A DNA stretch of 60,886 nt, filler included, from Phoronis ovalis (taxonomy: Eukaryota): assembly GCA_028565635.1 (NCBI GenBank). It is 5 parts of 5 records of this genome, joined end to end, with 100 filler letters (N's around TTAATTAATTAA, not from the genome) between each part and the next. Parts side by side here need not be neighbours in the genome. Positions count along the whole stretch, not along the records: positions 1 to 20,509 come from JAOXYB010000005.1; 4 more parts are not named here. The stretch is one strand, 5' to 3'. Shown here one piece after another: positions 3,518-14,510 of the stretch. The position numbers and the translations under genes were made by a program. Within the stretch, counting starts at the first letter, position 1, and each line of letters opens with the position of its first letter. The notes under the pieces are model-generated. The model was not told where the DNA came from and made no database searches. It saw nothing but the letters and a program-made list of their open reading frames with translations.

Positions 3518-6227
3518 TTAGTCTAGTTCGAATTCAACAATATCTTCAGTCTTTTTATCATTAGGCGCTTCATCATCCTCCTCAACGTCAGCGACACCTA
3601 TGGTTTCCACAGCTATATTTTCTTCTGCAATAAGTTCAAGATGACTATTGCGTATGTGAGGAGTATATTCTTCTGCGACACCTGACATTATATGTTCTTC
3701 GCACTTGAAAATCAAGGGACGCTGAAGGGAGGATGCAAAATGGGATGCAAGTTTTACCGACTTGCCATCACTGAGTATGTGCAGTTGTTCATTCATGTGT
3801 TTATTAGTGTTTCTTAGAATCGATTCCAAGCTTTCACCTTTATTTTTGTATTTCTTGAAATTTTTTACAAAATGTTTAATAAATGGTGTCCCATCTGGAT
3901 CACGGTATGACAGACATCCAGGCAATGTGGAGTAAGCTATTATAAAATCTTCTTCTGCAATTGGTAATAAAACTTCTGCAATAGCTACTGGAGCTTCTGA
4001 TGGCTTTGAGTCAGTGGATGCAGGTGGTTTTAGAATTTCTACAATGGGAAACAAAACAGTTTACTATTATCCAGTCTGAATAAATCCATCCATTAGTGTT
4101 TCGTACCTTCTCAACCAACGTTTAGGTTTAACCTTAGTCAACTGTCGAGATATTTCTTCAATTTAACAGGAGCAAAATCTATACGTCATTAAAATTCTGA
4201 TCCGATCTAAATAAGCTATTCTCTTTTTGTGATTGGCCTATTTTACTAGCTACCCGCTTAGTCCACTGTTATACCCATTATTGTAAGCTGCAATTTGATT
4301 GGCGTCTAGACTTTCGCGGATAATTTATACATAAATAAAGTGATTATCATTCTTCTGCTTTTCCATATAATAAACAGAAATTGACTGTGATTAAGCTCTG
4401 ACGTTGGTTGAGAAGGCACAGAATACTAACGGATATATTTATTTAGACTGACTATTAACCAAAAAATGCCCCTTAAGTTTACAGTTTAAACTACTTCCAC
4501 AACTTTCACCGCAGACAACTTCGTGAAATGCAATGACAATGAGAGATTGTATATACATATAGGTGATCAGTATATTTCAGTGATAATTTATGGGTCCCTG
4601 TCACAGGTGCTCGCGAGTAGTCATAAAAGGAGTGTTCAACGAGACAAACTGACACATCACACAATTATGGGGGAACCTGGGCCTCGGAAAGACTCGGGTG
4701 GGGATGATGATCCTGGTGGAGCAACCATGGTTTGGTTCTTCCCTCGAAATTAATTGAACATGCGTCAAAAATTCCTGTATGTAGTTACTAGTTAATGTAG
4801 TCCTCGCTTTGTAAATGTAGTATTTCGACACTTTCTGTTACAATGATAGGTTCACAATTATTATTCTATTTTGCAAAATTTAAAAATTGTACTTAAAATC
4901 TTATATCAAATTAACTTCTTCTGCGCAGATACCAAAAAACGGTATCAACTGTAAAATTTCATGTAATGGAAGTGTGATTTTCAAAAGATTTTTTTTTTAA
5001 ATTTGAAATTCAAGGACGTTATTCATTTTCGAATAAAGATTTTATAAGGGCATTGTAATTTCAGCAGAGTATTTTATTGTTTAAAATGTTTCTCGTCAAA
5101 TAAGCATCTTTCAAATATTCAGTTGTAAAAAAGAATGTCGGCCCTATTTCATTGATAATGTTTGCATTTCAGTACCTAATATTTTTCGATGACTTAGTAC
5201 TTGAAAGATAAGACAGAGATATGAAGTGTTTTAGTCCCACTCGTATTTTTTTAAAACTAGGTTTTAGGTTGCTAGTATAAAGCTTGCTTCAAAATGTACC
5301 TCTTGAGCGTTTTCCTTGACAAGACACAATAAGGAAAACCTTTGGTTTACCACTCAGCGTTGGACTGTTATGAGTTGTGAACTTTGATGTCAGTTCGATT
5401 AGTGGCACCAATACTCCATCAACACCGTATATTTGACCACTTATTCCATGACTCATAATACAGCAAATGAAGCAGCTGTATAATGAGTGGTTTTCTTTAC
5501 TGTATGACGTCACGCAGTCTCGTATCTCTGTTGAAGTTAAATCCTCAACGGACTGAACTATAAACCCAGTTTCTTCAAACGCAGTGGCCAAAGTAGCTAA
5601 GAAAAGTTTTTTAAAGGTATCAGAAAAAACAGTAAATGAAAACACAGATAGTAGACACAATAAGGTAATCAGCTACAATCATTTTGAAAAGGTCATCAAT
5701 AAAACAGTTTCTTAATCTCTCTCTGTTAATTCGAAGTAAAAATCCATGTTATCGAATAATTCTTGTTATTAATTTGTACTGTACATGTTTAATTGTAGGT
5801 AGTTACAACTGTAACATTTAATAGAACTACAGTCTTTACCAAACGATTTAAAAAGTAACTGAAAACTGTGCATGCAGAAACCTTAGTTCACTGAAGCAGT
5901 TCAGTTCTTAACAGGTAAGTTTCTTCGAGCAATGTTTGGGAAATTTGCATATTGATTTGGGTTACATGAAATTATTGTAGAAGTGGATGGGAAAAATCAA
6001 CGCTGTCAATATTCCAATAGTAAAAATGTACACACCCTGATCTGCATGAGTTCCTTCTCTGTTATCAACATCTGAGCCTGCCCAACTGAAGTCATAATTA
6101 CTAATGATAAGCGCCACGCCGACTGGTTTAGGGCACATTGGGTATGGAATATTGATTGTTGACACGCTTGTTGAAGATTTATCACTCTTTGGACCACGAT
6201 GATCTCCACCAGAACAAACTGGCCAAT
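3518..6227 (-). CDS. Caspase (peptidase C14A) domain exons, caspase-8-like
   Basis: PYPM..KPVGVALIISN.DF...NREGTHADQ|ATLATAFEETGFIV...CFICCIMSHG...IYGVDG...LSGKPKVFLIVSCQG|...EDFIIAYSTLPGCLSYRDPDGTPFI. Catalytic His (SHG) and Cys are present. Confidence 0.93.
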
Positions 6228-12200: not shown

Positions 12201-14510
12201 CGCTCATAGTTTTTCATAGATAAATGTATTTTAATTTTTACACCCATCTCGCCATATTTACCTCTAAAGTCTTCGTTAAAGATTGCAGTTTCTAATGCAG
12301 TAACTAATTTACCATTATCGCGCAAGTCCGATATAATTTCCAAATGTTTCTTTGTTATTGGCTTAAATATAGCAGTTGCTCGATCAGTTGTAACATTTAT
12401 TAGTAGATCTGTGCACTCAATTCCATAGGATTTCATATCACGATTTATGGCTTCACAATATCCTGCTTTGTTATCATGAATATACCCCAACATCTCACTA
12501 TACTTTTTCTTATACTTCCTGAATCTTGTAACTAATATCATCTTAATGCAAATTCCATCCCATGGTATGGGTGCTGGTATCGAATTATCTAAAATATCAG
12601 ATATTGTTTTATATAATAGATGTCAAAATAAGGATGGCCTCAGGAGTTGGTAAAATTATGATGCATCTGCGATTGTTAGTCATAGTAGAGATGATAAAGA
12701 GATAATTAAAATAATTCATAAATGACTTACATAAAAATTAATATTTGCTAATATGTAATTCATTTTCTCTAAATAGGTCAAGTAGTGCAGACGCCATTTT
12801 GGATAAATAGTTACGTTGCATTTTAAAAACGAAAATAAAAAAGTCGGAAACATCCATTTTCACGAATTCTGTAGATACAATGGTTTATGACTTACTATTC
12901 TTTTTAATATTAATTTTTGACAATTTAACCAGAAATGGTAGTTACACAGGCACATGTCAAATTAAAGAAAAAAATTATAAGCTTTAATCAAATGTCTACG
13001 TCTTGTCTAATTTAATTCAGAAAAAGATTTTTAAAATTTTATGTTAACCAATTTCAGGAATTCTTTTGGAGACATTTATTTCTCAAGACACACGTATTAT
13101 TCCCAGTTACTTGCTAATATCGATCATCTTTACAAGTGTGTGCTACATGTGCTGTTAGTAGGTGGACAATTTCAAGTTTTGTTGGTGCGCGTGTCTATGT
13201 TTACGTACCCCTTGGCGGCGATATTTCTGTATTCCTTAAAATGTTAACTACATCTGTCTTTCCAGTAATTAAAGTCACTCTTGAAGCCAATTCTAAAGCT
13301 GTTGAACCAAGGTAACCTTTTCTATTAATGTAACATTCTGTGTTGTCAACCAGGAATTTGACCATGTCAATATTTTCAGACATAACGGCCGCATCCAAAG
13401 CTGTAATATGTTGGTTGTTTTGCTCGTCGGTAAGACATCCTGGTAAAGCAGCCAGATATCTAACTACATTTATATTACCACTTGCAGCAGCTAATATAAA
13501 GGCAGTATCATTATTGTTGTTTCTTTCGTTGAGTTTATCACTACCAAACCTGGTATTTCTAACAAAATATTCCACCGTATCAATGTGACCATTCATTGTA
13601 GCAGCTAAAAATGCATTGCTACCCTTGTTGTTTTTTATGTATATGTCGCATTCTGAAAGAGAAGCTAGATATTCCACTACTTTAGTGTGTCCTTTCGTTG
13701 AAGCTAGCATAAACGCGCTATTACCATTATTGTCTCTTTTGTTGAGTTTATCACTACCAAAGTTAGTGTTTGTAACAAGATACTTCACCGTGTCAATATG
13801 ACCGCTTAATGCAGCCAATATGAACGCATTGCAACCATATTTATTTTCCATGTATTTATCACATTCCGGTAATGAAGCAATATATTCGACTACATTGGTA
13901 TGGCCATTGGATGCTGCACAAATAATGGCAGCAGTACCATTATAACTTGCTTTGTTGACATTGATGTCTTTTAGTGTACATAAGTAGGAAACCACCTCAA
14001 TTTGTCCATAACAAGCGGCAAACAAAAATACATCCTCACCGTCCTCGTTCTCTTCATTTATATTACATTCAGGCAAAGTGATAAAATACTTGACAACTTT
14101 GATGTATCCATTTTGTGCCGCTAGCATAAGAGCTGTGTCACCATCTTTATTTTTTTCATTTACATCATATCCCGTGATTTTTGTTAAATATTTGACAACA
14201 GCAATATGTCCATTGTAAGCTGCGGCCATAACCGCAGTGTTATCGGTACCGATATGAGAAGACGTTCTTCTGATCGCTGATCTAGCGTTGACATCAGCGC
14301 CAGCATCGACTAGAGCTTGTACGATATCTAAATCACCATTATTTGCGGCAATAATTAACGGTGTCTGCTTAGGCTCATCAACGTCCCGATATTCCAGCTG
14401 TTCGCTACACACGAGCAAACAGTCTCTAACTATTTGTATACCTCTTTTTTTAACAGCTCCAAGAAGGTCTGGTGCTTCTGTGCCAGTAGAAGAATTCATT
14501 TTCTTGAGGC
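3518..14510 (-). CDS. Predicted multi-exon ankyrin-repeat / TRADD-N-like / ankyrin-repeat / caspase fusion protein (~2,000 aa); 5' end unresolved
   Basis: Exons 14510-13209, 12588-12043, 11444-8277, 6227-6036, 5596-5300 and 4038-3518. Every junction is GT-AG and phase 1, internal exon lengths are multiples of 3 (1302, 546, 3168, 192, 297), and the frame stays open to TAA at 3518. Confidence 0.72.
4066..4457. mobile_element. MITE-like element with ~75-bp imperfect terminal inverted repeats in the last caspase intron
   Basis: Left arm cagtctgaataaatccatccattagtgtttcgtaccttctcaaccaacgt (from 4072) matches the reverse complement of the right arm acgttggttgagaaggcacagaatactaacggatatatttatttagactg (to 4450). 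Confidence 0.8.
6490..6690. repeat. Degenerate short-period repeat of (C)CTAGAA-like motifs, probably a transposon subterminal region
   Basis: Recurrent cctagaa/gctaga/cctacaa motifs roughly every 10-25 nt. Confidence 0.4.
6711..7392. mobile_element. Possible non-autonomous DNA transposon remnant with imperfect inverted ends
   Basis: Left agaccgcata...atggcgacctcggtgtaaa resembles the reverse complement of the right end (agaaccgcatatggcagccttggatgcaaaa); the interior is AT-rich and non-coding. Confidence 0.4.
7819..8215. repeat. Repeat element with a GC-rich head followed by a degenerate ~30-35-bp tandem array
   Basis: cccgggggtactc...gggatgtgccgcc head, then repeated gtagcaatccaaa/aatccaaa units (e.g. 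~7889, 7926, 7956, 7987, 8092, 8122). Confidence 0.55.
8277..11444 (-). CDS. Large ankyrin-repeat exon (~28 repeats) of the ANK-caspase gene
   Basis: 1056 open codons of G-x-TAL-x-x-AA-x-NGH-x-x-VV-x-YL...CD(I/V)N units; acceptor cttatag|, donor |gtaagt. Confidence 0.95.
12043..12588 (-). CDS. Exon encoding a putative TRADD-N-like alpha/beta domain
   Basis: ...RATAIFKPITKKHLEIISDLRDNGKLVTALETAIFNEDFRGKYGEMGVKIKIHLSMKNYERC resembles the invertebrate TRADD-like N-terminal pattern (L..L....sG.L...L...l...e.........l.i.i....Y..C). Acceptor ttttag|, donor |gtgagt. The exon is well supported; the domain name is an inference. Confidence 0.6.
13209..14510 (-). CDS. N-terminal ankyrin-repeat exon (~11 repeats) of the ANK-caspase gene
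   Basis: 434 open codons of ankyrin repeats; strong acceptor tcttttcctttccag|, donor |gtacgt; possible start Met in KKMNSSTG. Confidence 0.93.

Follow-up and report, generated by a model that had tools for sequence, protein, structure and literature searches.

Enzymes of the caspase-8 type are initiators with a long prodomain. In the current view, death-fold adaptors switch initiator caspases on, and caspases with repeat arrays in place of a death fold suggest that recognition can be coupled to cell death in other ways. The closest described systems are the caspases with an ankyrin-repeat (ANK) prodomain, which were reported from every parasitic platyhelminth surveyed and from one annelid, Alitta virens (PMC11463336). 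An ANK caspase was first noted in Schistosoma by Lee et al. 2014, as cited in PMC11463336; in that account the published ANK caspases form a clade sister to the DED caspases, are without a known activator; to date, gene predictions are their only source. In the literature searches made, an ankyrin-prodomain caspase was described nowhere beyond this paper and its preprint, and the search listing for a survey of bivalve caspases (PMC7836458) contains no occurrence of "ankyrin repeats." Here, we analyze a locus of this kind in a stretch of 60,886 nucleotides from Phoronis ovalis (assembly GCA_028565635.1; the whole stretch is referred to as the window), where six exons on the minus strand would, if joined as we propose, encode a caspase preceded by two ANK blocks with a further domain between them.

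How does this locus compare? As in the published ANK caspases (PMC11463336), an ANK prodomain takes the place of DED or CARD ahead of the p20 and p10 regions; theirs are sister to the DED caspases, and the p20 exon here is nearest to caspase-8. What sets the locus apart, by description only, is that its ANK repeats, about 39 in all, form two blocks, that an extra globular domain lies between these blocks and that the total length is 2,004 residues. The suggestion of an undescribed system that was made in an initial annotation of this DNA is therefore overstated, given the flatworm and annelid proteins. Provided that exon 3 is spliced to exon 4, the principle and the affinity to caspase-8 would be shared with those proteins, and the new elements would be the scale and the array-splitting domain.

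Two further systems deserve comparison. Multidomain proteins with a TRADD-N domain, detected with more sensitive profile methods, occur in sponges, bivalves, amphioxus and bacteria (PMC8195603). They resemble the present model in having a single small alpha+beta domain between two modules, with ANK and in some cases caspase domains as neighbors. Caiap consists of a CARD and 16 ANK repeats, and its ANK domain binds the active caspase-1-like Caspa and stabilizes it in large complexes (PMC5662874). An ANK array acting together with a caspase would be common to both; however, Caiap is a separate CARD adaptor without a protease domain, whereas we propose that ANK and protease belong to one chain.

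A frame of 2,004 codons in six exons

The model is built from six stop-to-stop open reading frames (ORFs) on the minus strand, at 13201–14541, 12002–12622, 8269–11532, 5962–6273, 5289–5672 and 3518–4060 (window positions are used throughout, every exon of the model is on the minus strand, and the surrounding DNA is AT rich and eukaryotic, with a G+C content of ~33 to 37%). When the ORFs are joined by script at the junctions of the initial annotation, the result is a spliced frame of 6,015 nt, or 2,004 codons, with zero internal stops. Each of the five introns (620, 598, 2,049, 439 and 1,261 nt) begins with GT, ends with AG and is in phase 1, and in the sequence the upstream ORFs run for only 2, 13, 2, 24 and 3 codons beyond their respective donors before they stop. 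The scripted join thus reproduces what had been claimed at the outset, namely, that six seemingly separate ORFs form one frame of about 2,000 codons through GT-AG introns of a single phase and that the upstream ORFs close shortly past their donors. The coordinates and the content of the exons are collected in Table 1.

The domain order of the model is ANK ×10 to 11, a 181-residue domain, ANK ×27 to 28 and the caspase p20 and p10 regions. Pfam places ANK families in ORF 1 (Ank_2, E of 5.9e-60) and in ORF 3 (Ank_2, 2.1e-155). With a hidden Markov model (HMM) of the repeat, trained on 15 clean ANK repeats of the same protein, block 1 has 10 repeats plus 1 weak one and block 2 has 27 plus 1 weak one; that is, 37 of these tandem 33-residue units fall below an independent E value of 0.01, and 2 more are weak. 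The estimate of ~11 and ~28 repeats (~39 in all) in the initial annotation agrees with this count.

Table 1. Coordinates of the proposed gene and of the sites discussed in the text (window positions)
Feature	Position	Strand	Description
Acceptor-like AG	14511..14512	-	Behind a pyrimidine tract, 11 nt 5' of the ATG
Exon 1	13209..14499	-	ATG 14499-14497 (first Met of the ORF), N-terminal cap, ANK block 1; donor GT 13208-13207, phase 1
Exon 2	12043..12588	-	181-residue domain; core 12197-12562 predicted to be ferredoxin-like
Exon 3	8277..11444	-	ANK block 2; consensus donor CAG/GTAAGT at its end (8276-8271)
Intron 3	6228..8276	-	2,049 nt, longest intron; high-copy repeats at ~6750-7170 and 7590-8146
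Rival start ATG	6241..6243	-	In frame, 14 nt 5' of the exon 4 acceptor
Exon 4	6036..6227	-	Linker with Asp sites (SGGD, PKSD), followed by the first part of the large subunit with the putative S1 Arg (residue 1725)
Exon 5	5300..5596	-	p20 core; His1782 (5450-5448), Cys1825 (5321-5319)
Exon 6	3518..4038	-	Inter-subunit linker (ASTD), p10 with the putative S1 Arg1877, acidic tail, stop TAA 3520-3518

At the 5' end of the gene, the acceptor-like AG ahead of the ATG probably marks a spliced 5' untranslated region. A donor-like ATG/GTAAGC is found at 14625–14632 on the same strand, ~115 nt 5' of the acceptor-like site, and is a candidate for the end of a noncoding first exon; if this donor is used, the transcript would carry a 5-codon upstream ORF that overlaps the main ATG. 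A comparatively clean (CA)n run lies just 5' of the gene, at ~14790–14874.

One gene or two?

The crucial junction is that between exon 3 and exon 4, which would link the ankyrin exons to the caspase exons. The donor AGGTAAGT has only 3 copies on both strands of the window (~122 kb), and one of them coincides exactly with the 3' end of the 1,087-codon ANK ORF. Because this ORF ends on a donor that is rare in the window, it is almost certain that a further exon of the ANK gene lies downstream. At its other end, the same ORF has no Met ahead of its ANK repeats (the first is at 11313), and in the 206-codon ORF 2 the first Met (12541) likewise is not ahead of the domain; both must therefore be internal exons of the gene that starts at 14499. 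The coding exon that follows on the minus strand is the caspase exon 4, the acceptor of which matches in phase. Between 8276 and 6228, the other phase 1 candidates open only short ORFs, mostly within high-copy repeats; neither of the two ORFs in intron 3 has a Pfam match, and no other convincing coding exon was found in this 2-kb interval. Based on these features of the DNA, we favor a single gene, in which the ankyrin exons are spliced to the caspase exons, with a probability of roughly 0.6.

Could the locus instead consist of two adjoining genes, one for an ANK-only protein (exons 1 to 3) and one for a separate short-prodomain caspase, with a joint frame that is a coincidence? In that case, the ANK gene would end at the TGA two codons beyond its donor, or a small terminal exon that we do not see would close it, and the caspase would start at the in-frame ATG just ahead of exon 4 or in an unseen 5' exon within the 2-kb interval. 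A number of points weigh against the single gene and in favor of this alternative, or at least temper the argument made above. Downstream of 8276 there are 85 phase 1 AG sites that are followed by at least 20 open codons; frame-compatible acceptors are thus expected by chance, and a frame that stays open at any one junction carries little weight on its own. The ATG ahead of exon 4 could begin an ordinary short-prodomain caspase and would leave ~20 residues before the p18-like start, which is the length of an effector-type propeptide. The pyrimidine tract of the exon 4 acceptor is only modest (11 of 20 positions), and intron 3 is the longest of the five. The available sequencing run behaves as genomic DNA, in that its contigs cover the introns without splice joints; the joints that its contigs do contain fall inside repeats, and none is at a proposed splice site. 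A metagenome scan with the p20 exon retrieved 16 distant caspase loci (28 to 54% identity), none of which had a match to the ANK exons, exon 2 or exon 4 by tblastn, so that no orthologue with the fusion is found among them. Finally, odd caspase prodomains may be chimeric gene predictions, a risk against which the authors of the ANK caspase survey themselves warn (PMC11463336).

The affinities of the caspase exons cut both ways. The best match of the p20 exon is human caspase-8 (E of 1.2e-24, with identity at about half of the 94 positions aligned, by our own count), followed by an ancestral effector caspase (2e-19), caspase-3 (~3e-15) and caspase-2 (~1e-14). All eight Protein Data Bank (PDB) rows returned for exon 4 are caspase-8, at weak E values of 0.27 to 0.9, and align it to residues 218 to 252, the start of p18; placed at the beginning of the caspase-8 large subunit in this way, exon 4 would contribute a linker of ~20 residues containing Asp ahead of the catalytic domain. 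A p20 region that is like caspase-8 rather than effector-like argues against a separate short-prodomain enzyme. The p10 exon is divergent, and its top score is with effector caspases (8.1e-6), not caspase-8, which speaks for such an enzyme.

Two genes would also have to overcome the donor itself, a perfect one that requires a downstream exon where none that looks coding was found but the caspase; moreover, an interval of 2 kb that is largely high-copy repeat would need room for a promoter as well as for a terminal exon and a poly(A) site, and the ATG proposed as the caspase start has a T at −3. In total, we regard two adjoining genes as possible but unlikely. Should the junction fail, what remains is an ordinary ANK gene beside an ordinary caspase.

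The domain between the ankyrin blocks

Exon 2 is a real coding module. In 5,000 shuffles of the interval 11445–13208 (1,764 nt), none produced a sense ORF of at least 180 codons; the largest had 155 codons, against the 206 observed. The same control across the whole window is weaker, since 26 of 200 shuffles yield some ORF of at least 180 codons. The junctions of the exon (GTGAGT donor, TAG acceptor) resemble those of the other exons, and in the genomic run it is low copy, with a depth of 78 to 160 versus 40 to 95 in adjoining bins and 10^4 to 10^5 in true repeats.

Searches with its sequence returned little. In Pfam, at E values of up to 10, there was nothing but Tenui_NS4 at 0.13, with no match to TRADD_N (PF09034); phmmer against the PDB gave noise from HDAC and Kidins220 and no match to TRADD; and NCBIfam and PADLOC gave no match. 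A full HMMER search of 1.84 billion protein representatives found no match at E values of up to 0.001, and a word-indexed protein search and a metagenome contig scan likewise found none. In the ESM Atlas, the top score was 0.89, with unnamed clusters, which we treat as a lead only; for the p20 exon, the Atlas listed plain caspase clusters only, and no ANK family. How much do these blanks mean? The word-indexed search was empty for all three queries, namely, exon 2, the p20 exon ("longer") and the p10 exon. Given that even the p20 exon, about half of whose residues are identical to those of human caspase-8, has no match there, the index is in effect blind to animal proteins for these queries, and its blanks say little. 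Because the protein collections return nothing for the caspase exons either and seem to contain few animal proteins, an orphan status of exon 2 is not established, and the same caveat may touch the HMMER search.

Structure prediction is more informative for the core than for the whole domain. The AlphaFold model of all 181 residues is too poor (predicted local distance difference test [pLDDT] score of 44.5), which makes the Foldseek search with it meaningless. The 122-residue core, predicted from the single sequence, reaches a pLDDT of 72.1 and a predicted template modeling (pTM) score of 0.62, and the order of strands and helices in the model is b-a-a-b-b-a-a-a-b. As modeled, this core is a foldable ferredoxin-like b-a-b-b-a-b sandwich. 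A Foldseek search of the PDB with the core gave no match at E values of up to 0.001; TRADD-N (1f3v_A) was at rank 33, with an E of 0.049 and a TM score of 0.51. Upon reranking with VIA-align, 1f3v_A moved to rank 7 (Z of 6.3, root mean square deviation of 3.5, 106 residues aligned), and similar scores came from unrelated folds, namely, subdomains of HMG-CoA reductase (7.4), IS200/IS608 transposases (6.1 to 6.7) and Thg1 (6.3). In a wide VIA-align search, no chain had a Z of 8 or above; the best was 7.2. An IS200/IS608-type transposase was considered as a candidate in its own right and set aside, as the exon has no visible His-hydrophobic-His motif and is low copy.

The initial annotation had called this domain TRADD-N-like. 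The predicted fold class, an RRM/ACT-like b-a-b-b-a-b order, would agree with this name, and the placement is the typical one, since exon 2 is a single copy sited between two ANK blocks; on the strength of the model the name is compatible with what we find. The identity as such is unproven, because unrelated folds score equally well and there is no Pfam match. Two further apparent differences from the described TRADD-N proteins (PMC8195603) concern details of the domain and its setting: the predicted b2-b3 turn is Thr-Thr-Asp (12394–12380 region) where that family has a conserved Ser, and the N-terminal Death-like domain that is present in most of the animal examples has no counterpart here.

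A variant of the single gene, which does not exclude it, would make exon 2 nonconstitutive, that is, a cassette exon or an unrelated ORF within a single 1,764-nt intron. Since the flanking introns are both in phase 1, skipping of exon 2 would keep the frame and give an ANK-ANK-caspase protein, and the exon is without relatives in any search (the Pfam and PDB listings being noise only). Rank 3 in the ESM Atlas is, in addition, a Mutator-like transposase cluster with a score of 0.88, again a lead only. Against this stand the shuffle result for an ORF of such length, the lack of a Met ahead of the domain, splice sites as in the other exons, the low copy number and a core that folds (pLDDT of 72) from a single sequence. 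Furthermore, among the 40 contig variants listed of 228 (29 exonic ones were used; the 9 that lie in an intron or a repeat and the 2 beyond the gene were dropped), 10 fall in exon 2, 4 synonymous and 6 nonsynonymous, and none introduces a stop. We consider a nonconstitutive exon 2 improbable.

A predicted caspase without a death-fold prodomain

Does the 3' end of the gene encode a working protease? Peptidase_C14 (PF00656, cutoff of 21.4 bits) scores 82.8 bits in ORF 5 and 36.8 bits in ORF 6; Pfam finds no family in ORF 2 or ORF 4. The catalytic dyad is kept, with His1782 (SHG) and Cys1825 (SCQG) aligned to SHG and ACQG of caspase-8, and Arg1877 is aligned to the SYR/SWR Arg of the S1 pocket. 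From a reading of the sequence for the motif, Arg1725 is the putative other S1 Arg; of the set Arg/Gln/Arg, two of three are then kept and the Gln is Val. The pentapeptide is VSCQG rather than the usual QAC(R/Q)G, with Val at the place of the first Gln, and this Val may weaken or change P1 recognition, a point that weighs against the main reading. After p10 there is a tail of 74 residues, 20 of them Asp or Glu. With family scores above the cutoff and His and Cys in place, the caspase at the 3' end is apparently competent, which supports the initial annotation of a caspase there.

The likeness to caspase-8 and the DED caspases includes, apart from the best matches of exon 4 and the p20 exon, the SHG and xxCQG contexts, the Asp-containing linkers and an initiator-type layout. 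The differences are the Val at the first position of the pentapeptide, the p10 scores nearer to those of effector caspases and the prodomain: there is no tandem DED here and, more generally, no CARD, DED or Death domain in the six exon ORFs or in 8 further minus-strand ORFs located upstream and inside intron 3. In this respect, too, the initial annotation, which described a caspase lacking a death-fold prodomain, stands.

Drosophila Dronc is an active caspase with a non-Gln first pentapeptide position. This weighs against the weakest of the alternatives, a decaying or catalytically dead locus in which the frame is open and the protease inactive, at most a scaffold or decoy like cFLIP; VSCQG in place of QACxG, the divergent p10 and the ratio of 10 synonymous to 19 nonsynonymous changes among the exonic variants could be cited for it, but with His, Cys and both putative S1 arginines kept and 2,004 codons open in DNA of ~33% G+C, we hold it to be very improbable. 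The variants themselves are too few, and their origin (alleles or paralogues) too uncertain, to support any argument on selection. No paralogue of exon 2, 4, 5 or 6 is found elsewhere within the window.

Proposed mechanism

In the most likely working of the single gene, the minus-strand gene running from 14499 to 3518 would encode a 2,004-residue cytosolic zymogen, an initiator-type caspase in which repeat scaffolds stand in for the death-fold prodomain. The chain would pass from an ANK solenoid of ~11 repeats through the ferredoxin-like hinge or adaptor to a second solenoid of ~28, and from there through the Asp linker to the caspase-8-like p20 and p10 and the acidic tail. We posit that binding of the ANK arrays to a protein partner, to a ligand or to each other would bring two catalytic domains together. 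Dimerization would lead to activation of the protease and to self-cleavage at Asp sites in the prodomain linker (SGGD, PKSD) and in the inter-subunit linker (ASTD), and the activated protease would then cleave downstream substrates. The ferredoxin-like module may serve as a hinge or switch between the solenoids, as has been proposed for TRADD-N (PMC8195603). The binding of Caspa by the ANK domain of Caiap (PMC5662874) is an experimental precedent that makes an interplay of ANK and caspase conceivable in this mechanism. The gene anatomy, the domain content, the His-Cys dyad and the likeness of p20 to caspase-8 are seen in the sequence. We infer from the DNA the splicing of exon 3 to exon 4, the protease activity, the sites of cleavage, the activation through induced proximity and any role in immunity or cell death, and a function as a sensor-protease is an inference of the same kind.

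Can the argument be carried further? One might speculate that the protein is a sensor and protease in one chain, in which the two ANK solenoids are ligand recognition surfaces flanking a TRADD-N-type switch that keeps the caspase-8-like protease inactive as long as no pathogen or danger ligand is bound. We think this distinctly unlikely. If it were true, however, such a protein would work without a death-fold adaptor, an apoptosome- or DISC (death-inducing signaling complex)-like platform or a nucleoside triphosphatase, and it would be an animal counterpart of the predicted bacterial and sponge conflict proteins that combine a repeat sensor, TRADD-N and an effector (PMC8195603), with the caspase as the built-in effector. 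If the gene is verified, no other ANK caspase would be as large or as elaborate, and it would offer a concrete construct (ANK blocks, middle domain and catalytic domain) with which to ask about direct ligand sensing.

Repeats and neighboring genes

Very high-copy short repeats occupy 4100–4420 in intron 5 and 6750–7170 and 7590–8146 in intron 3. Their summed contig depth is 10^4 to 6 × 10^5, versus ~30 to 90 for unique sequence, and they contain subrepeats resembling miniature inverted-repeat transposable elements.

Directly downstream of the caspase, two ORFs lie on the same strand (753–1313 and 1195–1527, minus). The first has a minimal core of a pol-beta-type nucleotidyltransferase, with weak matches to DUF294 (3.3e-05), GlnD-type uridylyltransferases, MntA and PADLOC PDC-S09, and this ORF near the caspase may be another immune-type gene. 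On the other side of the gene, a 166-codon ORF at 17656–18156 (minus) contains a GKS motif resembling a P-loop, matches no family and may be a degraded mobile-element ATPase; farther on, at 18834–20495, ~1.6 kb of degenerate purine/pyrimidine microsatellite-like repeat leaves all six frames open, with no Pfam match.

The remaining features are more distant in the window. Two overlapping ORFs at 26394–28111 (plus) are probably one gene, the second ORF with a TIR_2 domain (7.8e-10) and the first with faint TPR-like matches. Runs of N at ~28180–28280 and ~29410–29510, which appear as X in translations, are assembly gaps or masked stretches. A fragment of a retrotransposon of the LINE (long interspersed nuclear element) type is found at 30178–32509 (plus), with an endonuclease ORF (Exo_endo_phos) followed by a reverse transcriptase ORF (RVT_1); the G+C content of this block is 51%. 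A 577-codon ORF at 44833–46566 (minus) encodes three RanBP2-type zinc fingers (8.5e-21).

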